From a virus (taxonomy: Duplodnaviria; Caudoviricetes): a DNA stretch of 64,000 bases. The stretch is taken from IMG/VR virus record IMGVR_UViG_2565956658_000004, positions 39,937 to 103,936 of that record. One strand, 5' to 3'. Both the position numbers and the translations under genes were made by a program. Under the pieces are notes generated by a model that searched no databases, was not told where the DNA came from, and saw only the letters and a program-made list of their open reading frames with translations. Below, one piece after another: positions 4,480-59,296 of the stretch (position 1 is the stretch's first letter; each line of letters begins with the position of its first letter).

Positions 4480-4567
4480 TTTCTAAATCATCTGTGAGAT
4501 GAACAACCATGGGTAAATCGCAATCGTATTCAACAAACTTTTCTAAATCATCTATGCGATGAACAAC
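4480..4567 (-). CRISPR. Type I-F mini-array 1 (2 repeats, one 32-nt spacer)
   Basis: Minus-strand 28-nt repeats GTTGTTCATCGCATAGATGATTTAGAAA (4540-4567) and GTTGTTCATCTCACAGATGATTTAGAAA (4480-4507) with TCATC/GATGA stem and TTTAGAAA handle; spacer 4508-4539 is exactly 32 nt. Confidence 0.9.
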
Positions 4568-7313: not shown

Positions 7314-7453
7314 TTCCCCACCAAAAAATTTAATAATTATATAAAGTTACGATAGAGTATTTTTTAAACTTCTTCAATACACCCCTCTAAGGTTCGACCA
7401 TTTTCATTATAAAAATCATGATAGACGCATATTTTAGGAGTGCGTCATGTCTG

Positions 7454-7524
7454 AGAATCCTTTTGCTCAATTTGTTAAGCCACAAGAAAAGAAAGAAGAA
7501 AACCCTTTTGCTCAGTTTGTGCAA
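7454..7524. repeat. 71-bp inverted repeat, copy 2
   Basis: Encodes the N-terminal NPFAQFV repeats of the large virion protein. Confidence 0.95.
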
Positions 7525-10500
7525 AAAAGTCCTGAACAAGACAAAGAACAAGGCAAAGACTTTCTAGGTCATGCTCAAGATGCAGGTGCATCTTTAATGA
7601 AAGGTCTGGCGGCTGTGCCAGAAGCAATTGTTGGTCTAGCTGACATACCGACTGGTGGACGTGTTGGTAAATTTATTGAGCAAGATGTTGGTTTAGATTT
7701 AAAGGGAACAAAAGAATATTGGAACGATAAACATACCGACCAATACAAGGCCCAACAGAAACAGTTTGATCAAGCCGATGGAATTGTTGATAAAGCAAAA
7801 GTTGTTCTGACCAATCCGTCAATGATTGCAAATACGGTTGTTGAGTCCGCTCCATCAATGCTACTGGGTGGTGCAATTGGTCGTGGTTTAAGCTTGGCAA
7901 GTAAAGCTATTACCCCGATTGCTGGTGGTGCCATAGGTGAGGGTGCTGTCATGGCTGGGCAGCAGGTAGAAAATATACGTCAGCAAACTGATGATAAATT
8001 ATTGACACCTGAACAATCGGGCCTGTCTATTGCCACGGGTGCTTTAGGTTCATTGTTTGGCTATGCTGGTGGTACGATTGCCAAAAAGTTTGGCTTTGAC
8101 GATATTAATACTGCAATGGCATCAGGGCGATTAAACTCACAGCAGGTTGCTGGAGAAATTCAAAAAATACCATTAAAAAGTATCCCAAAATCCATTATTG
8201 GTGGTGCGATTACCGAGGGTTTACTGGAGGAATTGCCACAGTCTGTTTCCGAACAACTTTTACAGAATATTGCTTTAGATAAACCTCTGGATGAGGGGGT
8301 GGATTCTGCAATTGTTATGGGAACATTGGCAGGTATGGCAATGGGTGGCGGAATGAATACTTTTTCTGCCCCTAGTCATTATTTGCAGAATAGTAGGGCT
8401 TATAACGAACAGCAGGCTCTGGCAGCACAAGAAGAACAACGATTAGCTGCGGAATCACTGGCGCAAGAACAGCAGCAATTAACTCAACAACAGCAAAAGT
8501 TATTTGGTTTTGGCAAAGAACCTGATACATCGATGAATGTAGATGATGTATATGCGAAAACAGGTATTCCACCAAACCCTGTAATTGATGAAAGTAAATT
8601 ATTGCCTAATGCGCTCAGCTATGAAAATGGTATTGATTACCAGCCACCACAGATAAATAGTGGGCTGACATCTGGTAATGAAGTACCACCAAATGCTGAT
8701 GACATACCTTATGCACCACAGCAGATGCACGATACATGGTCTTTGGCTAATGAAGCACAGCAGGATTATGGGAACTCAATCGAGTTTGGTGCACCTGAAT
8801 CTAAATCCCGTAATTTAGAATCACAAATTCAGTTTAATGATACGTTTGGTCAAACTACACCTGATCCAGTGGTTGACTACAATGCATTGAGTCCATTTAG
8901 TAATGTACAGCAACCCTTTGTTGATCAGACAAAATTATCTGAGCGGTTAGGAATAAATCCGAATGCTGGCCCAATGTCATCAGCGGCAGCGTTAGCCGTA
9001 GACAGTGGTGCATCACCAATATTCCAGACACACCAGCCGTTGCCACAGAACAACAACCACAAACGTTATTAACTACACAGACTGAACCAGCACAAGAACC
9101 AGCCTCAAAGCCAACTTTTGCAAGTGACCATCCTACGGGTTCCGTCACCTATGCCCAGGACATTGCGAATCAGGCATTGCAACAGTATCAGGGAGATACA
9201 TCAGCTTTGACCAGTAAAGGTTCGTTTGGGCATAGTGCTGCAACTGAGTTGATCTATTCTAAAAATTCACCATCGTACAGTGACGTTCAGGTTGAGGATG
9301 CTGGAGACAAAGCCATTGTCAAGCTGACCAACGCAAGAACAGGTCTGGTTGAGGAGAGATCGTATCCACATGAGTTGGTACGTTTTAATCAATTTTTGGA
9401 TGGGGTAAGTCCTGATGTTTCACCAAATACCCAAGCGAATGATGTTGGCACGGGAACACCAACGCAGACAGATAGAACTATTTCGTCAAATACAAACGCA
9501 CGATTCAATAGTGAAACTCAGGCAACAGGCGCACATGAAGAATCAACGGGAGAAAACTTAAAATCCAATGCTGTAAATCCAATTCAAATTACATCAGAAA
9601 AAATCGCTCAACTGGAACAACAACTTTCAGAAACTAAGTCTGTTCCACAACGAAACCCTATTAAGCAGCAGATTGGTGAGTTAAATTCTCAACTGGAAAA
9701 TCAGGGACGTGCATCATGGGAAAATATGTCACCTGAACAGCGTCAGGCTGTGGTAGGGCAGATTGATACCAATATGCCTTTGGGAATGAAGAAGAGATTA
9801 CCTACAGCAGAATGGGACAGGATTGGCCCAGCAGTTAAGGAAAAGTTGATTGGAGTGATGGGACAGTCTTTTCAGCCATTTTCACAGATCGATACTAGTG
9901 CCCATGAAGCAGCAACAAGTCATTTAAACGATATACCTCAACCTACGCAAGCACAGATCGAAGCTGGTAACTATAAGAAAGGTCATGTACGAATACATGG
10001 TTTAGATATTTCGATTGAGAATCCAAAGGGTTCAACACGTTCGGGTACACGTCCAGATGGTACTGAATGGTCACACGATATGAGTGATCATTACGGTTAT
10101 ATAAAACGTACAAAAGGTGCGGATAATGAGCATATTGATACCTATATCGGTAATAACCCTGATTCAGACCAAGTTTATATTGTCGATCAATTAGATCAGC
10201 AAACGGGTAATTTTGACGAGCATAAAGTGATGCTTGGGTTTGATAATCAGGATGCAGCAACCAAGGCATATCAGTCCAATTTTGACAAAGGATGGAAAGT
10301 AGGCCCGATTCGTTCAATGAACATAGAGCAGTTTAAAGATTGGTTAAAGAATGAAGATACTTCAAAGCCTGTTGCGGATATTAAAATTTCTAATTCTAGT
10401 CAAAGTGCGTTATCTGAGCCAGTTGCACCAAAAAATATAAAAGAAGGCATTGAGAATATTCGCGCTGAACAAAATCGTCAAAAGGTTTTGGTTGATATGC

Positions 10501-11421
10501 ACAATAGTGTTTATGGCTTGGCATCGAATGAACAATTGCAAGAGTCGCTGAAACACTTAAATAAAGAAATCGTGAAAGCTCAAAAGCAAAGTGAGAACGA
10601 GGTTGTAAATGGAAAGCGTAGTACACGCAAGGCAGTTGCAGCAGGTGCTTTAGATCGATTTTTAAAAAATCGTGTAGATTTGGAAATGTATATCAAAGCA
10701 CGTAAGAATGGGGAGTTAAAGCAACGAAATAAAAAAATAGATGACTTTAGTAGAAACACTAAATTAACTCGTATGATCCAAATTCAATCTCAGTCAGAAA
10801 TTGACCAAATACATTTTATCCCAAGTCACCTGATGGATTCAGTGAATAGACTTGGAGATGTGGTCAATGATTTGGCATCGATGAGGACTGATAGCATCAA
10901 AACAAATCATGAATATGCTGTTAAATTGTTGAATGAGATTGTCAAGTCGAATCCAAATGTACTTGTACATATTGTTTCAGATTTGAATAGTATTGAAGAC
11001 ACCTCTATTCGAGCAAATTTAACAGCTGGTGGATTTTTTGTACCAGAACAAAATACTGTTTATATCTATCCTAGTTCTGAAGCGTGGAATAGTTCAGCGT
11101 TAGAGTTATTGAACCATGAGTTGGTACACTCTATTACTGAACAATATATTTCAAAAGGTCTAATGTCTCTTGAAGATATTGGTCATTTGGATAATTTTAT
11201 AAATATAATTAATGACTATCGAATTTTGAGTTATGAAAAGTTATCAGATGATGTTCGAGACAGGCTCGATTATGCAGTAACTACAAACCCTCATCATGAA
11301 ATTCTTTCTGTCGGGGTCGCAGAAACAGCAGTTCGTCAAGAATTGAAAAACATCATTGGTGAAGATGGTCTTCAGCAGTTATATAAAATATTCACGAATA
11401 TATCCATAAAGGAAAAGCAAT

Positions 11422-11628
11422 ATGAGCAACATGAACAAAGAGGAAATTCGGGAAGAAATTCGAAAGGAAACGATAAAGATGTATCAAAGTCTGCCAGTGG
11501 AATCTCAGAAAAAATTCAAAAAGGATTTGTCAAAGCTGAGTCAGACAATGGAATCAAACGAGATACGGGGAATCCGAGCGGAGATTTATCAGGAAATGAA
11601 AACTCTGAATATTCAAATACCCAATTAG
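11422..11628 (+). CDS. Possible overprinted small helical protein inside the polyvalent gene
   Basis: RBS-like AAGGA before ATG; amphipathic 68-aa sequence; the main frame here is low-complexity. Confidence 0.4.
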   Translation: MSNMNKEEIREEIRKETIKMYQSLPVESQKKFKKDLSKLSQTMESNEIRGIRAEIYQEMKTLNIQIPN

Positions 11629-14600
11629 AAGCGGATAACAATTTTGAATGGACTGAATCAATCAACAGGGTGTTTGGGATTTTCACTCAAAACAGAGCGA
11701 TTGAGCACATCATTTCTTTTTTTAATCATTTCAAAATGTCCACTACACAAGATGCTTCGATTAGTGGACGTATTAAGGTCACTTTGGGTAGGGCTAACCT
11801 CAACAATGTTGGTGATTTGGATACCGCGAGCTTTACGGTTCAAGTTGTTTCTAGTTTTAATAAGCTTCCTAAAATCATACAAGATAATGCCACTTATCAA
11901 GATGAAAACGGAGTAACCAACAATTATAGCGTAAGCGGTGTTTGGCATAATGACACGCTCTATATAGTCACTGATCAGATATATGGAAATATAGAACAAC
12001 AGCTTACTACATCTGATGCATATGAAGAATTATTAGCACATGAAGTTATAGGACATTTTGGTGTTCAGCAATTATTTGGTGATGAATATCAATCAAAGTT
12101 TCAGCAGTTATATAACGTACTTGGTGGAATAGATGGTATTCGGAACATAGCAAAAAATAATGGTGTCGATATGCAGCAATTTGAAAGTGCTTATATAGAC
12201 CCGTTTAAAAAAGGTGTAGAAGAAGGCTATTACAGTGCCCTGGATGCTCAACAAGCAGTTGTGGGAGAGTTATTCGCATTCATTGCACAGAACGCAGAAA
12301 CACGACCATTTGTGCGGCAAAAATTAAAAGAAGTCATTGGCTATATCCGTCAATGGTTTAGAGATCATGGGTTTAGCAAATTCTTATCACGCTACAACGA
12401 TGCTGATTTGATCATGTTTTTATCAGAAGCACGGAAAGCTGTTGTAGATCGTCGTTATTTTGGAAAATTTAAAGATCAGACTATTTCAACTAATAATAGC
12501 GATAAATTATTTAGCCGCGGTCAGTCTACAACCCGTACAGATACCACAGTAAAACAGGTACGAGATAAACTTGTTTCACGATTTGGTGAAGAAACGATTT
12601 CAAAACTGGAAATACAGGAGAAGTTAAATATTCTTGATACCTATGAAAAGGCAGGTGTTGAGGGTTTTTATCAAAGTGGCAAGGCAACTTTAATTGCAGA
12701 TGCCTTAACCAATGACACAATTATCCCAACATTTCTACATGAATTAGGTGGTCATGGGGGATTCCAGAATATGATGGATGCCAAACAGTACGATGATTTA
12801 ATGCATCAGTTTGATCGTCTAGTGGCACAGAACAACCCGATTGCACTTGAAGCTAAACGCCTTGCTGAACGGGAAACAGATCCAGAAGTACAGCATCTTG
12901 AAATGCTACCTTACTTACTGACCTTAGCATCCAATAACCAGATTAAAAATGCAGTTCATAAAGGTAATGTAAAACGCTTAATTTCGGATTTGAAATCCAA
13001 AATTAAGGCTTGGGTTTATGACCGTTTGGGGGTAAACCTAAATCTTGATACAAATGATATTGTTGCATTAGCTGAACGAATGATTGATAAAGGTACTACT
13101 AAGGCAGCTCAAAGCAATCAGCCTTTATATAGTCGCCAGCCTATTAATAGTGCAATTAACAGACTAAGCCAAAACATTAAACAAATGTCAGTTAAGTCAA
13201 TTAAGGACAAAACAGGTTATAAATGGACTGATTGGTTGGGGATAGGGCTATCTAGTTTAGGTCGTCGTCAGCTTACTGAAATTTATAGCAAAATTTTACC
13301 TCAACTCAACAAATATAATGAGCTTGCGGCACAAATGGATGCTGATAAAAATGATGCTGGTGCTGAAGCTGATAGTATCGTGCGTGAGTGGGCTAATCTA
13401 AAAGATGAAAATCAGCTTGCAGAATTGATGCACGATGCAACTTTAGCCAAGATTGACCCATCAAAACCGTATGTGAGTGGCGATAGCATTTCTAAATATA
13501 AGCAGTTGCGTGATGATTATAATTCATTATCGCCAGAAGCACAGGCAATGTATTTGAAAGCCCGTGATGCGTATAAAAAGCATTATGCGAAAGTCCATCA
13601 GGCGATTAAAGAGCGTATTTTACGTTCTGAATTAACCAATCATAAAAAAGCTGATTTGTTGAAACAGATGGATAACCAGTTTTTTGGTTATACAAAAGGG
13701 GTGTATTTTCCATTAGCACGCTTTGGTAAATATGTGGTCGTGATGCGTAACCAGAATGGTGATGTAGAATGTGTTAGCCGCGCCGAAACCATGGGAGAAG
13801 CACAAGCGTTACGTTCTGAACTTATGCAGAAATACCCTAATTTTAAGGTAGATCGAGTAATTCTTGATAAAGAGTTTAACGCATCTCGTGATGCCGTTGG
13901 TCGTGGGTTTATGACCAGTCTATTTGCAGAGGTAGATAATTTAGGTTTATCAACTGCGGAACAGGCTGAATTTGAAGATACCCTAAGCCAGCTTTATTTA
14001 TCTTCTATGCCCGATTTGAGTTGGGCGAAACACGGTATCCATCGTAAAGGTACGGCTGGATTTAGCCAAGATGCCCGTCGGGCATTTGCACAAAATATGT
14101 TTCATGGGGCTGGATACCTTGCAAAGTTACGCTATGGTGATCAACTTGCAGAGCAGCTTGATGATATGCAGAAATATGCAACAGAGCAGGGCAAACAGGA
14201 TGACACGTATGACCAGCCAACCGCCCAGCGTGTCATTGATGAGATGAATAAACGTCATGATTTATTGATGAATCCTAAATCTCATCCATTATCCAGCGGC
14301 TTAACAAGTCTAGGATTTATATATTATCTAGGTCTATCACCTGCGGCAGCAATGGTCAATTTATCGCAAACTACTTTGGTTGCTTATCCGATTATGGGTG
14401 CAAAATGGGGCTTTGATAAAGCAGCAACAGAACTGTTAAAAGCGTCAAATGATTTTAGAAAAGGTGTTGAGTTCCATAAAGTTAAATGGGAGGGAACTAA
14501 AACAGACTTATATAAAACCATAAGTGCTGATATTTCAAAATTTCTAAATAAGGATGAAAAACAGGCTTATGATAGTGCTGTGGCAAGTGGTGTAATTGAT

Positions 14601-15920
14601 GTGACACAAGCACATGATTTAGCTGGCATTGCTCAAGGTGAAGATAGCGGCATTATGTGGAAAACACGTCCAATTATGCGTGCAGCAAGTGTTATGTTCC
14701 ACAACGCAGAACGATTTAACCGTGAAGTGACCTTTATCGCTGCTTATCGTCTTGCACGTCAATCAGGTTCAAACCATGATGCAGCCTATACCCAAGCGGT
14801 AGATGCAACGTATAAGGGGCATTTCGATTATAGTTCTGGCAATCGCCCACGTATCATGCAAGGTAATGTGGCTAAAGTTCTTCTGTTGTTTAAACAGTTC
14901 GGTCAGAACATGATTTACACCTTGGCTCGTCAGACATATCAGTCAATAAAAGGTGAAACGGACGCACAGCGTAAAGAAGCCCGTAAGTCACTCGGTGCAA
15001 TTTTGGCAATGCACGCAACTTTTGCAGGTGTACTTGGTCTACCTGGTGTTTGGCTTATCATGGCTATTGCATCAGCATGGGGTGGAGATGATGACGAGCC
15101 ATGGGATGCAGAAGTGGCATTGCGTAATTATCTTGCTGAAGCATTCAACCCAACTATTTCAAATATGTTGATGAAAGGTGCACCACGTGGTGTTGGTATT
15201 GATCTGTCTGGTCGTGTTGGTATTAACAATCTTTTATTACCAGATGTACAAGAGGGATTAGAGGGTAAACGTTGGGCTGAATCTGCTATGGCTGGTGCAT
15301 TAGGACCAGTAGCAGGCATTGGTACAAATTTAATTAAAGGTGGTCAGGAGTTATCAGATGGGCATACATTGCGTGGTATGGAAACTATGCTACCTGTATT
15401 TCTGAAAAACTTTGCCAAGACCTATCGCTATGGTGATGAGGGTGTTCAAGACAAAACTGGTATATCCATTATGGATGAAGTCAGCTCTATGGATTTACTT
15501 GTTCAGGGTATGGGCTTCTCACCATCTGATGTGCGTACAGCGAATGAGGGTAAATCGGCAATTTACCAATTAAATCGAAAGCTAAACGAACGTCGTAGCC
15601 GATTAGTGACATTATGGTCACGAGCGAAAATGATGAATGATCAAAACGAAATGGATAAAATCTGGGAAGAAATCCAACAGTTTAATGAGAAAAATCCATC
15701 TCGACGTATTAATAGAATCAATCTAAACCAAAGCTATAAGAATCGGAAAAATCGTATTGATAAAGCTGAGGATGGTATTTATCTCAGTAGAAATCGCCAA
15801 GATGCCCGTGAAGCTGGTCGTTTTGCGTTTGGCGAGTAACCCTCTGTAAGCCTCGAATAAATATCCAAATTCAATAAAACTCTGCGTTAAGACGTGGGGT
15901 TTTTTTATTAGGTGAAAAAA

Positions 15921-16301
15921 ATGCAGGAAAATACAATTCCTTGGGTTCTAAAATTAGTGCCTGCTGTTGTTGGGGCAATATTAGCACTTGTATTGAGTGG
16001 TGATATTGATAAAAACGGAAAAATTCAAGTTTCGCTTGGTGTTATTGGAAAGTTTCTAGCAAGTGTAACTGTTAGTTTGTACGGTGGTTCAGCATTTATC
16101 GAGCACTTTGATCTATTAAATAAATCAACAATGTATCAAGGATTTGTGATGTTGATTTTTGCTGTTTTTGGACTGTTAGCTATTGGTATTATTTACCAGT
16201 CTATTGCATTAATGCAAGGTAAGCCGCTTTTTGAAGTAATAGGTGAAATAAAAGCAGCCTTTATCTCAATTCTTGGCAATGGCAAGGGTGGGAACCAATG
16301 A
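15921..16301 (+). CDS. Holin
   Basis: Three TM helices; overlaps the lysozyme start. Confidence 0.75.
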   Translation: MQENTIPWVLKLVPAVVGAILALVLSGDIDKNGKIQVSLGVIGKFLASVTVSLYGGSAFIEHFDLLNKSTMYQGFVMLIFAVFGLLAIGIIYQSIALMQGKPLFEVIGEIKAAFISILGNGKGGNQ

Positions 16302-16918
16302 GTATTGATCAATCTCAGCAAATTGCTCAAGCGTACTCATGGCTTAGAGCAATGTCGGGGGGTAAACTTACTCAAAAGCAAGTTGAGGCAGGTGATGCCG
16401 TTATTGCAGTAAATGGACTTCAGACTTTTGCAAACCTAATAGGTTTCAAACTTGATTCTACAGTTACAGGTCAGTTTGATATTTCAGAAAATGGTTTTGC
16501 AATCATACGTGAGTTTGAAGGATTTCGCGCACAAGCATATTTAGACACGGGTGGGGTGTGGACCATTGGATATGGAACAATTAAATATCCAAATGGTATA
16601 CGAGTTAAAAAAGGGGATACTTGCACGCAAGGTCAAGCAGAACTTTGGCTCAAAAACGATTGTGCATGGGTTGATGCTTGTCTTGATAAGTATGTTAAAA
16701 CAACTATTAATCAAAACCAATTTGATGCTTTATCCTCATTTGTTTATAACGTGGGCGAACCTTCATTTATAAAAAGTACGATGCTTACTCTCATTAATAA
16801 AGGTGAGCTGCAGAACTCAGCGCTACAATTTGATCGTTGGGTTTTTGATAATGGAAAAAAAATTGACGGTTTAGCGAATCGCCGTGCTAAAGAAAAGGCA
16901 CTATTTCAAAAAAAGTAA
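16298..16918 (+). CDS. Endolysin (GH24 lysozyme)
   Basis: FEG...AY.D.GGVWTIGYG, NQFDAL.SFVYNVG, GL.NRR..E..LF. Confidence 0.95.
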   Translation: MSIDQSQQIAQAYSWLRAMSGGKLTQKQVEAGDAVIAVNGLQTFANLIGFKLDSTVTGQFDISENGFAIIREFEGFRAQAYLDTGGVWTIGYGTIKYPNGIRVKKGDTCTQGQAELWLKNDCAWVDACLDKYVKTTINQNQFDALSSFVYNVGEPSFIKSTMLTLINKGELQNSALQFDRWVFDNGKKIDGLANRRAKEKALFQKK

Positions 16919-16930
16919 TTCACCATTGCA

Positions 16931-16965
16931 AACGCTCATTATCTTCACTGATAGTGAGCGTTTTG
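16931..16965 (+). terminator. Intrinsic terminator after the lysis genes
   Basis: AACGCTCATTATC...GATAGTGAGCGTT-TT hairpin. Confidence 0.65.
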
Positions 16966-16987: not shown

Positions 16988-17015
16988 TTGAAAAATAGTC
17001 ATGCTATGGTAGTTT
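16988..17015 (+). promoter_or_regulatory. Sigma70-like promoter of mini-array 2
   Basis: TTGAAA-16 nt-TAGTTT with TGn extension; predicted +1 about 17021-17022. Confidence 0.55.
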
Positions 17016-17017
17016 CT

Positions 17018-17105
17018 AATAACTACCATAAAGGTAGCTTAGAAAGTATTTCGGTCATATTTCACTGTACCGTTTACGTTAACTGTCGTATAGACAGCTT
17101 AATTT
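17018..17105 (+). CRISPR. Type I-F mini-array 2 (2 degenerate repeats, one 32-nt spacer)
   Basis: AATAACTACCATAAAGGTAGCTTAGAAA (17018-17045) and GTTAACTGTCGTATAGACAGCTTAATTT (17078-17105), each with an intact 5-bp stem and 5-nt loop; spacer 17046-17077 is 32 nt. Confidence 0.85.
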
Positions 17106-17442
17106 TTAAATCTTTAGACTACCCAGCATTTTATTGTTATACCAGCTCATGAGTTCACGATGCTCATTGATATATTTATATCTTGGGGACTAGGGAATAC
17201 ATAGATTGGGTGATTGATCTCTGATTTGTGCATCTGCATACGCTTAATCTACTTTTGAGCAAAGTTATGAGAAAAGTCCGATGACAAACATTATTTTCCA
17301 CTAGAAAGTTTTCAGATGTTGTGTGATGCTTATTTTATATAAAAAGAAATATTTATGGATTGAGAAATAATATTTAGTCATAGCTTGTTTGTTTTTGATT
17401 AATTACTTACGTTCTTGAAAATAAAGAAAAGAGGGTTGGAAA

Positions 17443-18387
17443 ATGGTTTTAATTAAATATATACATTTAAGCTTGGTTCTTTGTGGCTTTGGGTTTATAA
17501 CCTCTGCTTTTGCTGGAAATGATAATTTTAAGACCATTGAATCTAATGAATTTATTGCTCGAACTAGTAATGATTGTGGTCTAGTTGAGAAAGTAAAAGG
17601 TAATTCTAAATACAAATCAGTTCGCATAGAGTCTGTAAAACGCGACATATGGGAAGGAATTTGTGTAGATGGGCTAGCTTTGGGTCCTGGTAAAATTATA
17701 AATCGCAATGCTAATGGTGAGACAACTGGACTCTCAGAAATGTGGATGTTGTACGGTAGGCCTATAGGACAGATCAAAACAACTTATATTTCTAGATATA
17801 ATTCCCCAGATTTACATACTGAGGGGTTTTATTGGAATGGAGAAGGCTATTCTCGAAGGGGAAATACAAAGTTATCTGAAGAAACACAAGCTGATCGCGA
17901 TAACCTATTTATTAATTATCAGCCCAGAGAGGCAACTAAGTGGATTAGCTTTGGACTGAATGCTAATTGTTATGATTCTAAGAGTCAAACAACTGGTCCT
18001 TGTATTGCTGAAATGCACCATACAAATACAGATAATTTCGAAGATGGTGTTACTCGTTACTTTTGTAAGAGTAATGAGTGTGAAGGAAAATGGCGTGAAT
18101 TAACTGACAAGTTGGTTTCCGAATATGAATTATTTGAACGAACTCATACAGCGGAGGTAGAGGCTGCAAAAAAAATAGTTGAACCTATTTTACTAAAAGC
18201 TAGAGCCGATAAACAAAAAGCTGAAGCTGAAGCTGAAGCAGAGTTAATTGCTATGGAAAATAAACGGAAGGCACAGATTGAGCAACGTCAGAAAGAATTC
18301 AGTCAGGCTAATCTGGCAAAAATACCTGTAGCTAGTCCAGCATTAGAAGAACTTATCAGAAGAACACTGAATGGAGGAGGGAAATAA
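17443..18387 (+). CDS. Secreted hypothetical protein (cargo)
   Basis: Signal peptide ending AFA; WEGxCVDGLAxGxG motif; coiled-coil C-terminus. Confidence 0.7.
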   Translation: MVLIKYIHLSLVLCGFGFITSAFAGNDNFKTIESNEFIARTSNDCGLVEKVKGNSKYKSVRIESVKRDIWEGICVDGLALGPGKIINRNANGETTGLSEMWMLYGRPIGQIKTTYISRYNSPDLHTEGFYWNGEGYSRRGNTKLSEETQADRDNLFINYQPREATKWISFGLNANCYDSKSQTTGPCIAEMHHTNTDNFEDGVTRYFCKSNECEGKWRELTDKLVSEYELFERTHTAEVEAAKKIVEPILLKARADKQKAEAEAEAELIAMENKRKAQIEQRQKEFSQANLAKIPVASPALEELIRRTLNGGGK

Positions 18388-18388
18388 A

Positions 18389-19195
18389 ATGTCTAAATTG
18401 AATATTGTGCGTACATTTACACTCTCAATTTTAATTTTTACTCCATCTATTTATGCGGAAACAAGAAGTGAAATGTTTGCCAGAATAGCGGAAGAAGGTC
18501 GTAAGAATAACAAATGGACATCAGAAGCAGATTGTAAAGCTGAACAAGAAGTAGTCAGAAAATTTCGTTTTAGAGGAGCTACTACTTGTGATGATCGAAC
18601 TGGGAATAATACTGAGCAATCCATCGCTGCAGCATTAAGAGCGCCATGGGAATCTAGATATAGTGGTAAAGTTCAAGGAGCCCTAGTTTCGACAAGTGAA
18701 TTAAAAGAAAGTGTTATTTACTTATATAAAGCTGCTGATGAAGAAGATCAGAAAAAATACAATATTCATTCAGTCAGTAGAGGTGATCAATGCACAGTTG
18801 CATTATATAGATTGACTGCATGTGCATATCAAACTGCTGCCATGAGAAAGGATAGCATAGCAGCAGTTTCTCCAGAGGTAGCAAAAGCAAAATTAGAATC
18901 TCAATGCTCGACTCAATCAATTGAAAAAGCCAACTTAGAATTGCAAAAGATTGATCAGCGAATTGCAGACTATTTAGCATCTTCTGAGGGTAAACAATTA
19001 GCGAATGCAACCCCATCATTGCAGGTTGTAATGTGGGGAACAAGTGAACAAGCCAAAATTATGAAAAAATATTGCCCTGATGCAGATGCATTTAAACAGG
19101 AAATAGCTGATCGAATGGTATCTTATGAGGGTGCTCTAAGAACATGTCGTCAAATTCAATCAAGCCCTGAGGTATGTGGACCTGTAGCACCTTAA
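18389..19195 (+). CDS. Secreted Cys-rich hypothetical protein (cargo)
   Basis: Signal peptide-like N-terminus, eight Cys, strong RBS GGAGG. Confidence 0.7.
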   Translation: MSKLNIVRTFTLSILIFTPSIYAETRSEMFARIAEEGRKNNKWTSEADCKAEQEVVRKFRFRGATTCDDRTGNNTEQSIAAALRAPWESRYSGKVQGALVSTSELKESVIYLYKAADEEDQKKYNIHSVSRGDQCTVALYRLTACAYQTAAMRKDSIAAVSPEVAKAKLESQCSTQSIEKANLELQKIDQRIADYLASSEGKQLANATPSLQVVMWGTSEQAKIMKKYCPDADAFKQEIADRMVSYEGALRTCRQIQSSPEVCGPVAP

Positions 19196-19298: not shown

Positions 19299-19943
19299 TT
19301 AGTGTGTGTTTGGTCGGAATTTATGCATGTCAGCTTTTGGTGCGGCTGTGAACTCATCCACTGGCATTTCAAAGAAAAAGTCTCTTGCTTGTTCATGGCT
19401 ACAGTTAAGCCAATCATTGCGACGATCTCGTGGTATTACGATGATTGATCGTTTCTCGTCATCTAATGCATGAAATTGATTCATGAATGGGTGTAGATCT
19501 GAATTGATCGTCAACATCGACATTGATCTATATTCAACGCCATCAATAACCGCATATTCATAAATGCCTGCGACGGTAAACGGCATTTCATCTCTACGAT
19601 AAATTCCATACCAGTGAGACTTTCCATCTATGTATTTTGGTTCAAAAATAGTCTCAACTGGAATTAAGCAAAATTGGCTTTTCTTCCATGCATTTCTAAA
19701 ACTTGGCTTTTTTTCTACAGTCTCAGTTCTAGCATTGTATGTATTCTTAGCTTTCTTAATATCATCTAACCACGGTGCAACTAGACCAAATCTGGCCAAG
19801 CGCCATTCTATGTTGCCGCGCTTGGAGAAAAGGATAGGGGCCTCATAGTTAGGGTAGATGTCAGCTTTATAGTCAAAAGTAGGCTCAAATAGATTTAATA
19901 ATTGAGCGCGGCTTCTGGCAATTGGTTTGTAGTTGGCACACAT
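19299..19943 (-). CDS. SOS response-associated peptidase (SRAP/HMCES family)
   Basis: N-terminal MC, NAR.ET..KPSF..AW, CLIP....EP, FH...DEKRS. Confidence 0.9.
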   Translation of the reverse strand: MCANYKPIARSRAQLLNLFEPTFDYKADIYPNYEAPILFSKRGNIEWRLARFGLVAPWLDDIKKAKNTYNARTETVEKKPSFRNAWKKSQFCLIPVETIFEPKYIDGKSHWYGIYRRDEMPFTVAGIYEYAVIDGVEYRSMSMLTINSDLHPFMNQFHALDDEKRSIIVIPRDRRNDWLNCSHEQARDFFFEMPVDEFTAAPKADMHKFRPNTH

Positions 19944-20109
19944 GAATCTGGCCTCAATAGTGATAACAATAACTATGAACATTTTATATGTATTGTTGGT
20001 TGCTAGTTTGGTTATAAATGAGATATTTGATGATGTAAAAAGAATGCTCTTTATGGTTTGTAGGGGGAGGTGAGTCCTTTATCAAGAGATTAAATTTTTA
20101 AAATTCAGA

Positions 20110-39432: not shown

Positions 39433-40767
39433 CTATCTAATCTTTTCATAAAGACCGCCCTGCAAGCTTCCAGCTACAACATCATCTTTAATCTTAAAAA
39501 TACTCACAATTTCCATCACGCCATTTTTTGAACGTATTGATAACTTAATCACTTCATTTGGCGCATTTTTCTGAAGTGCTGGTAATAGATACAACACACT
39601 TTGATTATCAACATCCCAAATGACTTGCTGTGCTTGTGGAATAAGCTTAGGTAAAGCGATCCATTCATCCAACGTTGGCGCATTGCCAGCTGCACCATGT
39701 CGTTGAGCTTTTTGACCAACAAGCAAATGGTCTGAAATTGTAAGAATTGGGCTTTCTACTGCAACACTCTTTTTTGCCAAGAATTGAATATCTTGCATAT
39801 CAACTACACCAACGGTATTAGTTTTATTTTGCTGCTTGCCAAAACTGATGGCGTTTTTAACAAATGCCTCATGCGCTTTAATACGTGGTGCGCTTAATAA
39901 CATTTGTTGCACTTGTTGCAAACCTTTCTGAGCACCGAGCAGATTGGCAGCTCGCTTGGTCAGTTCAACATCGAGTAAATAGCTCGCTGCTGGATGACTA
40001 TTAAAGCCAGCCGTAGGCGAGAAATAAGTGACTTGTCCATCCGCTTGCTTGATACGAATACGCGTCTGTGTAGCAACAGCATCCTGACCAGTAAAACTAC
40101 TTTTTCCAATCACAACCTGATGTTGATCAATATCTTCAGGTTTAGTTTCAACAACATTTAAATCCAAAGCCTCAACATCACTGGCACGACGTGCACGAAT
40201 TTTACATTGACAGCCAAACTCAGTTGGTGGGTAGGCATAAAGCCAAAAGGGATCATCATAACGACGGGTTTCACCATTCCGTGCTAAATGTACTTTGCGC
40301 GGATTAGTAATCGAAATATGTACCCATTCCCACAATGGGCGAGTATCAACACTTGCCATCATTGACTTATAGCGCCCAGCTGCAAGACTCTTATGGACAT
40401 TGGTATCAAATATGGTTTTAAGACGACGTGGGCTACCAAGCTGAACTGTTTGATTAACACCAGCAGGATTAATAACTGTCTGTTTTCCCCACCAACCTTT
40501 TTGCTGCAAGACTGGTGTAATTGCGGCTTTCCATTGTTCTAAATTTTGACCTTGTTCCAGTGCAGTAATCAGTGACTTTCTGATGTCTTGTAGCAGATCA
40601 ATACGAGCAACTTTAGCAACAGTAAAAGCACGGCTATGCGCTTCATCAAGCGTCTCATGCCAGTCCCAGCCAATTTTAAAACCTTTCGATTTTAAATAAG
40701 AAATTGCATCTTCAGGCGGCAACTTAAATAGAGCGTTCAGTTCTGGGCGTGAAGGGACATTAGCCAT
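39433..40767 (-). CDS. MuF (gp30-like) head protein with a C-terminal extension (putative PBECR-type nuclease)
   Basis: AFTVAK, RL.TI..TN, PP..FGC.C MuF motifs plus about 150 extra residues (K..RH...N..T..EW..LP..I....V.WD). Confidence 0.85.
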   Translation of the reverse strand: MANVPSRPELNALFKLPPEDAISYLKSKGFKIGWDWHETLDEAHSRAFTVAKVARIDLLQDIRKSLITALEQGQNLEQWKAAITPVLQQKGWWGKQTVINPAGVNQTVQLGSPRRLKTIFDTNVHKSLAAGRYKSMMASVDTRPLWEWVHISITNPRKVHLARNGETRRYDDPFWLYAYPPTEFGCQCKIRARRASDVEALDLNVVETKPEDIDQHQVVIGKSSFTGQDAVATQTRIRIKQADGQVTYFSPTAGFNSHPAASYLLDVELTKRAANLLGAQKGLQQVQQMLLSAPRIKAHEAFVKNAISFGKQQNKTNTVGVVDMQDIQFLAKKSVAVESPILTISDHLLVGQKAQRHGAAGNAPTLDEWIALPKLIPQAQQVIWDVDNQSVLYLLPALQKNAPNEVIKLSIRSKNGVMEIVSIFKIKDDVVAGSLQGGLYEKIR

Positions 40768-55938: not shown

Positions 55939-56238
55939 ATGGAAAACCAACATACACAAATCAGAGGCTATCGTGATCTTTCCAAAGAAGAAATTGATTT
56001 GATGAATGAAATCAAAGCTAAAGGTGCAGAATTGGGTGCTTTAGTTGAAAAGTTATTTGATCACACACGTCAACAAATTGATGCGGCTAATGCACACGGT
56101 ACTCAAACAGGAGATTTCTCTGAGTTTCAGCGTTTAACAGATGCTGAACCGCATCACTGGGTAGCAACTGGCGCTACCAATTTACAGCAAGGCTTGATGG
56201 CTTTAACACGTGCAGTTGCTCAACCAACAACATTCTAG
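55939..56238 (+). CDS. acb2: Anti-CBASS sponge protein Acb2
   Basis: MENQH..I.GYRDLS.EEIDLMNEIK and AEP..W...G.T.LQ.G.MAL.RAVAQP..F match the Acb2 family pattern. Confidence 0.9.
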   Translation: MENQHTQIRGYRDLSKEEIDLMNEIKAKGAELGALVEKLFDHTRQQIDAANAHGTQTGDFSEFQRLTDAEPHHWVATGATNLQQGLMALTRAVAQPTTF

Positions 56239-56309
56239 GCGAAACACAGGCATTCATGCCTGTGTCTACTGGATGTCGTGATCCAGTACTGACGAGCAGC
56301 GAGGATTTT

Positions 56310-59219: not shown

Positions 59220-59296
<77 letters not shown>

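Follow-up and report, generated by a model that had tools for sequence, protein, structure and literature searches.

A degenerate type I-F repeat-spacer-repeat cassette without cas genes in a putative Acinetobacter prophage, a candidate gene for one crRNA-like RNA

Introduction

Does a prophage that lacks cas genes use a single pair of CRISPR repeats as a gene for one guide RNA and, if so, to what end? The question is raised by positions 16988-17105 of a 64,000-nucleotide (nt) stretch of viral DNA, referred to below as the window, namely the final 64 kb of an IMG/VR provirus record of 103,936 base pairs (bp) without host chromosome (IMGVR_UViG_2565956658_000004, positions 39,937 to 103,936). 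Here, flanked by the lysis module and what is left of an integrase gene, a cassette of two degenerate type I-F-like repeats is carried as cargo. No Cas6f or Csy3 was found in the 103,936-bp record and, being cas-less, the cassette would have to use the type I-F system of a host. The assignment of the prophage to Acinetobacter rests on the relatives of its endolysin. We scanned 247 Acinetobacter species genomes (one genome per species) and found Cas6f in 85 of them, which makes cognate hosts common.

Mini-arrays of viruses without cas genes, Racrs, regulatory I-F mini-arrays of Acinetobacter prophages and Cracr arrays are already in print (PMC11656645, PMC10651486, 10.1101/2023.03.03.530964, 10.1101/2024.10.29.618823). 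To them, the present locus adds a comparatively supported candidate for a phage gene that would hijack host type I-F Cas proteins by RNA alone, in a genus whose I-F systems and CreTA modules, as well as phage therapy, attract much current research.

Results and Discussion

The cassette is a non-random type I-F unit

Sequence reading and a repeat search both delineate a cas-less type I-F-like repeat-spacer-repeat unit, in which two 28-nt repeats (17018-17045 and 17078-17105, plus strand) follow each other with a period of exactly 60 nt. Of their 28 positions, each repeat shares 21 with GTTCACTGCCGTATAGGCAGCTTAGAAA, the I-F repeat most often seen in Acinetobacter, and the two agree with one another at 16 of 28. 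When both strands of the 64-kb window were compared with GTTCACTGCCGTATAGGCAGCTTAGAAA, a likeness of at least 18/28 was reached at these two positions only. In first-order Markov shuffles, pairs 60 nt apart never arose (0/1000), and single sites of at least 20/28 had a mean of 0.046 per window. The cassette is a real, non-random I-F repeat-spacer-repeat: the reading, the 60-nt period and the shuffles bear out the single-unit cassette with a 32-nt spacer that a sequence-only reading of the window had proposed. No open reading frame (ORF) of at least 30 amino acids (aa) crosses it on the minus strand, and Rfam has no family at this place. A plus-strand ORF (16988-17152, 54 aa, TTG start) overlaps the cassette and has no counterpart in the homologous cassette of genome G194 (see below), which differs in length and spacers.

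Repeat A (psi-R1, AATAACTACCATAAAGGTAGCTTAGAAA, 17018-17045) begins with a degenerate 5′ end, AATAA, which is followed by a Cas6f-type hairpin (CTACC-ATAAA-GGTAG, 17023-17037, 5-bp stem and 5-nt loop) and by an intact 8-nt handle, CTTAGAAA, at 17038-17045; the stem CTACC/GGTAG is also present in natural Acinetobacter arrays. The 32-nt spacer (17046-17077) leads to repeat B, the terminal psi-R (GTTAACTGTCGTATAGACAGCTTAATTT, 17078-17105), the 5′ 20 nt of which (GTTAACTGTCGTATAGACAG) are intact and include the second hairpin (17083-17097, stem CTGTC/GACAG). Its handle, CTTAATTT, is degenerate and continues into a T-tract, and a terminator scan scored the terminal hairpin together with CTTAATTTTT as terminator-like. 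Both repeats retain the foot pairs C6-G20 and U7-A19 along with the 5-bp stem and the 5-nt loop, and the exact handle, the 32-nt spacer and the 60-nt period give the full geometry of an I-F unit. Since the type I-F cut falls 3′ of each hairpin (PMC10651486, PMC10097628), the predicted mature RNA is a 60-nt molecule (17038-17097, plus strand) made of the 8-nt handle, 32 nt and a 20-nt 3′ hairpin. The degeneration of both repeats falls outside this 8+32+20 RNA, which agrees with the earlier claim that decay lies mainly beyond the mature product.

The spacer itself is uneven. Its first 14-15 nt are unique, and positions 16-31 (TTCACTGTACCGTTTA) are repeat-like: they align with I-F repeat positions 2-16 (TTCACTG--CCGTATA) with a 2-nt insertion, a score that 13 of 2000 shuffles reach. 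No comparable repeat likeness was seen in the other three spacers analysed here, namely W1 (mini-array 1 of the same prophage) and G194a and G194b (the G194 cassette), the spacer of the cassette being W2. The cassette spacer may hence consist of about 14-15 unique nt and a decayed repeat half, so that the length given for it earlier stands but its uniqueness may be only partial. A repeat-derived half would favour partial pairing, that is, binding without cutting.

A homologous cassette occupies the same slot in G194

Searching the genus at the DNA level gave one homologue, in genome G194 (L174 1098-1248 = G194:C95), which likewise has the terminator of the lysis genes on one side and an integrase on the other. 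It consists, in this order, of the same terminator, TTGACA-16-TAGTTT, TATTACTACTGCATAAGTAGCTTAGAAA, a 32-nt spacer, ATTCACTGCCGCATAGGCAGTTTAAAAA, a 35-nt spacer, GTTTACTACCGTACAGGTAGCTTAATTT and the tail TTAAATCTTT, and the handle of its middle repeat is TTTAAAAA. The tail after the last repeat is the same as in the window. On the opposite strand follows an intact 304-aa tyrosine integrase (L174 1226-2140), the stop codon of which lies inside the last repeat; as CTTAATTTTTAAATCTTT in the tail encodes the last residues of this integrase, the conservation of the tail has more than one possible cause.

The slot and its flanks are the same in the window and in G194, and the spacers differ, a comparison that shows turnover of the cassette. 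In the first hairpin, one pair is fully compensated between the two (C-G to U-A), and in the terminal hairpin two are (G-C to A-U, U-A to C-G), which makes 3 of 10 stem pairs changed on both sides and none broken. The compensated stems of the sequence-only reading thus hold up, although a compensatory change in two sequences is suggestive and not a statistical test, and some stems could be recombination swaps with natural variants. The same reading had looked to related phages for conserved stems and 32-nt spacing: G194 keeps the stems and has a first spacer of 32 nt, but its second spacer measures 35 nt. Furthermore, a wastewater metagenome contig spans 16300-17208, with an identity of about 97% over this stretch as a whole. 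No homologous cassette was present in the 160 endolysin loci scanned.

A match of the DNA search in G155 proved to be an ordinary array, and a leader-plus-repeat pattern gave 1 viral and 12 metagenome matches, none with a hairpin, which we attribute to chance. The pattern TAACTRYCRTAWAGRYAGCTTA found one solitary repeat in IMG/VR, in contig L001 (11690-11719): this I-F-like repeat, GTTTAACTGCCGTAAAGGCAGCTTAGAAG, has a terminator hairpin directly after it and looks Racr-type. In an Acinetobacter provirus (L032, 3690-3860), just past the lysis genes, four hairpins were noticed (CCATCGCTTAGATGG twice, CTATCGTATAGATAG and CCACCGCTTAGGTGG), two of them 56 nt apart and then followed by TTGAGAAATTAAT; they may be a repeat-mimic array of another sort, placed in the same slot.

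A putative promoter and an upstream anti-arm

A promoter-like element, TTGAAA (16988-16993), 16 nt and TAGTTT (17010-17015), precedes repeat A at 16988-17015 on the plus strand, with TGcTATGGT (17002-17010, plus strand) as an alternative extended -10. The predicted +1, at about 17017-17023, falls at the foot of the first hairpin. G194 keeps this geometry, with TTGACA-16-TAGTTT and, as in the window, a gap of 7 nt between the -10-like hexamer and the stem, and it is this conservation that supports the putative promoter and the earlier placement of a promoter before the first stem.

Overlapping the promoter-like element is what we call the anti-arm, TATGGTAGTT (17005-17014, plus strand), a perfect complement of 17021-17030, a stretch of repeat A that takes in its 5′ flank, its 5′ arm and some of its loop; the repeat search lists the two as a 10-bp inverted repeat, TATGGTAGTT/AACTACCATA. 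Since it lies upstream of the predicted +1, the anti-arm would be present only in transcripts begun further upstream. The G194 cassette has an anti-arm of its own, ATGCAGTAG, which is different, 9 nt long, located 10 nt further upstream and able to pair with its own, differently spelled arm. Both are situated between the -35 and the -10 of the putative cassette promoter. For the window and for G194 alike, 1 of 500 shuffles matched the length of the anti-arm, and none of 12 host crRNA-like (CRISPR RNA-like) genes had an anti-arm longer than 6 nt. The non-homologous positions of the two anti-arms and their covariation with their own stems suggest selection rather than inheritance.

In minimum free energy folds, the RNA started at the predicted +1 forms both Cas6f hairpins; in the read-through RNA from the lysis operon, the first hairpin is captured by the anti-arm. 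These in silico folds reproduce the masking of repeat A by read-through that had been proposed from the sequence, and G194 adds its own anti-arm to it. One could imagine from the folds an RNA device with two modes, in which the cassette's own promoter would yield a handle-bearing crRNA-like RNA in the lysogen, and lysis-operon read-through would yield, in lytic growth, a handle-less Racr-like decoy that jams Csy assembly, the anti-arm capturing the 5′ arm of the first hairpin so that Cas6f cuts the terminal hairpin only. This is a speculative model, to which we assign a small probability.

One prophage carries repeats of two I-F families

Among the 247 genomes, 71 had at least one match to arrays of GTTCACTGCC-N5-GGCAGCTTAGAAA and of GTTCACTACCG[CT]ATAGGTAGCTTAGAAA, and it is to the first of these types that the cassette repeats are 21/28 identical. 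From the stretches beside Cas6f genes, 88 loci were taken (1.02 Mb), and 58 of them had an array in the stretch. Stems CTGCC/GGCAG with the handle CTTAGAAA prevailed (33/58, plus one CTGCC/GGTAG), followed by TGGCG/CGCCA (11/58), CCATC/GATGG (5/58), CGGTG/CACCG (3/58), TGACG/CGTCA (2/58), TCATC/GATGA with the handle TTTAGAAA (2/58) and ACGCC/GGCGT (1/58). The cassette repeats are of the CTGCC or CTACC type with handle CTTAGAAA, which accounts for 34 of the 58 cas-linked arrays.

The prophage has a second, canonical unit, mini-array 1 (4480-4567, minus strand), in which two near-identical repeats, GTTGTTCATC[GT]CA[TC]AGATGATTTAGAAA, enclose a 32-nt spacer. At 27/28, its repeat belongs with the TCATC/GATGA type. 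Two I-F repeat families are hence represented in one prophage, and the comparison with the 58 cas-linked arrays confirms that it carries units for two I-F repeat types, as had been read from the sequence. Cassettes for two different families in one prophage go beyond the published picture. As a side observation, genomes G011 and G012 (L165, L166) have CTACC/GGTAG arrays and no Cas6f at E<=1e-10; these may be orphan arrays.

Host crRNA-like genes and published systems resemble the cassette

The Acinetobacter I-F cas loci themselves also contain solitary degenerate repeat units, which lie about 4-5 kb away from the Cas6f end. In these, a -10 box stands 7-12 nt before the stem of a first unit that is 5′-degenerate and has an intact stem and the handle CTTAGAAA; a spacer-like stretch (psi-S) of 14-27 nt follows, and then a second unit in which the 5′ part and the hairpin are intact and the handle is degenerate. 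A CC-flanked match of 12-20 nt proximal to the protospacer-adjacent motif (PAM) was found in their own locus, mostly within about 250 nt, for 12 of the 26 units with a perfect handle. Judged by their sequence, the solitary host units are CreA/CreR-type crRNA-like genes, as characterised in the CreTA of Acinetobacter sp. WCHA45 (PMC10097628). Host mini-CRISPRs of this type were seen in loci L252, L253, L261, L272, L278-L281, L287, L289, L301 and L326. Two stems of the phage cassettes, CTACT/AGTAG and CTGTC/GACAG, are found again in the host crRNA-like genes, the latter in L278 and L301.

The host genes share with the cassette the psi-R1/psi-S/psi-R2 build, the promoter abutting psi-R1, the 8-nt handle with a 20-nt 3′ hairpin, and variant stems. 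However, they lie in the cas3-csy1 region, their psi-S measures 14-27 nt and their target is no more than about 250 nt away, whereas the cassette lies in a prophage, has 32 nt and no nearby target. The CreA of CreTA, in particular, sits in the cas3-csy1 gap of a cas locus with a divergent creT and a nearby target; the cassette, which comes after a phage endolysin, does not have this setting.

Prophage-borne degenerate I-F mini-arrays with the hallmarks of the cassette, Acinetobacter included, are already described in two reports (10.1101/2023.03.03.530964, 10.1101/2024.10.29.618823). Shmakov et al. (10.1101/2023.03.03.530964 = PMC10120712) present prophage regulatory I-F1 mini-arrays of A. baumannii (A1429, AF-401) and Moraxella osloensis, and give as a hallmark that spacer-adjacent repeat letters and stems are conserved and stem letters variable. 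Compared by description only, these mini-arrays belong to the same genus and subtype family as the cassette and are likewise cas-less, prophage-borne and built of 2-3 repeats with the same hallmark; they differ in copying a host autoregulatory spacer and matching a cas promoter, for which the cassette has no equivalent in the 88 loci. In Liu et al. (10.1101/2024.10.29.618823), viral Cracr RNAs repress cas or creT promoters, 58 I-F candidates are listed, and for one viral array with three spacers, A. baumannii I-F loci are the predicted target. Like the cassette, Cracrs are viral crRNA-like genes with degenerate repeats; they hijack host Cas effectors and are sometimes multi-spacer, as in G194. 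The cassette shows the common trait of Cracrs and regulatory mini-arrays, degenerate repeats with the stems and the spacer-proximal letters kept, and the pattern that had seemed striking in the sequence-only reading is therefore a published signature. An acrIF24 or acrIF23 neighbour is frequent but not obligatory for Cracrs, and Pfam and PHROGs scans recognised no acrIF24-like neighbour at the cassette.

Two further systems are close to the cassette in part. The mini-arrays of inter-virus competition are also cas-less repeat-spacer-repeat units of (pro)viruses that depend on host Cas proteins, but as described (PMC11656645) they have host-identical repeats and spacers matching related viruses, whereas the cassette repeats are 21/28 identical to the commonest repeat of the genus and its spacer gave no match in the databases searched. 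RacrIF1 (PMC10651486) is, like the cassette, a prophage intergenic mimic of an I-F repeat; both have a promoter of their own, putative in the cassette, and a Cas6f hairpin whose foot pair is C6-G20. A GC mutant indicates the importance of this pair for RacrIF1 (PMC10651486). In that source, however, Racrs are solitary repeats giving a handle-less RNA; the cassette keeps the handle, the spacer and a second hairpin, and so is not a Racr unit.

Beyond the published picture stand a canonical-length spacer that is seemingly half decayed repeat, and an anti-arm that is present in both phage cassettes and in 0/12 host genes and could tie processing to the promoter used. We met neither in the literature consulted on such cassettes, and no search was aimed at either.

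What the RNA may do

The cassette probably encodes a functional RNA that host Cas6f would cut at its two hairpins and the host Csy complex would take up, whatever use is then made of it. As to that use, our preferred though tentative reading, drawn by analogy, is a fixed gene, transcribed on its own, for a single crRNA-like RNA that would serve, in the manner of a Cracr, as a non-cutting regulatory or anti-defence guide. Transcription would begin at the first hairpin's foot, host Cas6f would cut 3′ of both hairpins, and the 60-nt product (CUUAGAAA, 32 nt and the 20-nt hairpin) would assemble a Csy complex. The guided effector might then bind, and not cut, a promoter of the host or of a rival element, and the RNA might also compete with host crRNAs. 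Since the cassette has the build of CreA/CreR and Cracr genes and not that of an adaptive array, and since only about 14-15 nt of its spacer appear to be unique, binding without cutting seems the likeliest use.

A target for this RNA was sought in phages, plasmids, IMG/VR and Acinetobacter genomes. W2 had no exact match in IMG/VR and, with every sixth base left free, none in IMG/VR and 0 in metagenomes; W1 likewise had none in IMG/VR. For the four spacers, blastn against INPHARED returned only matches of E >=0.3, of which W2 had one (E=3). A PLSDB match of W2 to four Acinetobacter plasmids (E=0.7) was rejected, as it contains a 1-nt gap and is flanked by GG, not CC. With up to 3 mismatches allowed, W2 had 0 matches in the 247 genomes, and the 104-kb provirus record contains no self-target and no CC-flanked seed of at least 8 nt. 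The match that defines a Cracr as described, at least 9 PAM-proximal bp to CreA/CreR or to a cas/creT promoter, was not found in the loci compared: the best seed of 9 nt is at chance level among the 88 loci, which stem from one genome per species, the prophage's own host locus being outside the sample. No partial match above chance level turned up in these cas loci, a search that the sequence-only reading had proposed for host and cas promoters. Since the same procedure recovered targets for 12 of the 26 host units, the negative for the cassette has some weight.

Several observations weigh against a non-cutting regulatory guide. No protospacer or PAM-flanked seed match was found for W2, W1, G194a or G194b in the phages, plasmids, IMG/VR sequences and Acinetobacter genomes searched, so that a targeting role, as originally suggested for the RNA, found no support. 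CC with the 14-nt W2 seed occurred in 0/247 genomes, compared with 17 matches in 17 genomes for the reversed control; in the 88 I-F cas loci (1.02 Mb), the best CC-flanked W2 seed, 9 nt, was reached by 184 of 300 shuffled spacers; and against 87 host psi-S sequences W2 matched at best 7/14. The I-F Cracr spacers described (10.1101/2024.10.29.618823) are shorter than the canonical 32 nt of the cassette. The putative promoter is weak by consensus, TTGAAA-16-TAGTTT scoring 8/12, below the scan threshold, and is absent from the promoter-scan list. G194, the only other carrier found, has an assembly in which neither Cas6f nor I-F repeats were seen, and the closest prophage relatives (L002, L003 and L015 with 85-88% endolysin identity, L005 and L082 with 78%) share the terminator and then diverge, with no cassette. 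Finally, the two proteins encoded downstream (17443-18387 and 18371-19195) look secreted and belong to no anti-CRISPR family by Pfam or PHROGs, no Acr-specific library having been compared.

Part of this evidence also bears on the view that the cassette is a true interference guide, by which the host I-F effector would be supplied with a full-length crRNA and would destroy a rival phage or plasmid that carries the protospacer, be it in superinfection exclusion or in inter-element competition. The exact 8+32+20 geometry would fit a complete Csy complex, the G194 spacers differ as they would in an arms race, and the same prophage holds the canonical mini-array 1. Yet none of the four spacers has a protospacer in the databases searched, half of the cassette spacer looks repeat-derived, and the repeats are far from identical to those of host arrays, unlike the described competition mini-arrays, which leaves interference a rather unlikely use. 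The lack of a target, the degeneracy of both repeats (21/28), the weak promoter, the absence of the cassette from the closest relatives and the remnant state of the adjoining integrase would all suit a captured CRISPR fragment that is now a decaying relic without function. A relic is nonetheless improbable, in that the decay spares exactly the parts required for the mature RNA, stem changes between the window and G194 are compensated in 3 cases and disruptive in 0, the promoter keeps its geometry, each of two independent anti-arms has its match in 1/500 shuffles, and the contig from another sample, of about 97% identity over the stretch as a whole, still spans the region.

Still less probable is a Racr-type decoy, an RNA that would mainly soak up Cas6f and Cas7f and block Csy assembly whatever its spacer. 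The two Cas6f-type hairpins do have the C6-G20 foot pair required by RacrIF1 (PMC10651486), and masking of the first hairpin in the read-through folds would give a handle-less RNA ending in the terminal hairpin, which is the inhibitory form described for RacrIF1. But Racrs are solitary, and the intact 5′ handle and 32-nt spacing that the cassette keeps would be needless for a pure decoy. As the integrase ORF of G194 ends inside the terminal repeat, with its last residues encoded in the tail, one may also ask whether this repeat is the attachment site of the adjoining integrase, in an element that integrates into I-F repeats. We regard this as extremely unlikely, because no repeat stands at the 3′ ends of the integrase's two nearest relatives (G201 with 55% and G046 with 45% identity), and in G046 the same lysis terminator is followed by unrelated sequence and then by the integrase.

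Genomic setting of the cassette

The lysis module upstream of the cassette comprises a holin-like gene (15912-16301), a phage lysozyme, the endolysin (16298-16918, Pfam PF00959), and the intrinsic terminator of the operon (16930-16963, plus strand), a 14-bp stem followed by a T-run. Homology to the nearest related prophages stops just past this terminator. Directly after repeat B comes the remnant of a tyrosine integrase (17106-17240, minus strand), in which the comparison with G194 reveals an internal deletion. Between this remnant and a SRAP-family gene (19299-19982, minus strand), two overlapping genes of 314 and 274 aa (17443-18387 and 18371-19195, plus strand) form a cargo pair; their products have signal-peptide-like N-termini and no family in Pfam or PHROGs.

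Further away in the window, 7447-15839 (plus strand) holds a 541-aa ORF and a 2220-aa ORF, the former a giant virion/DarB-like protein by PHROGs (phrog_30335, E=5.7e-143). A second, Mu-like prophage part contains a type II hammerhead ribozyme at 56237-56305 (plus strand; Rfam, 57.6 bits, gathering score 37), and a tRNA-Met lies at 59220-59296.

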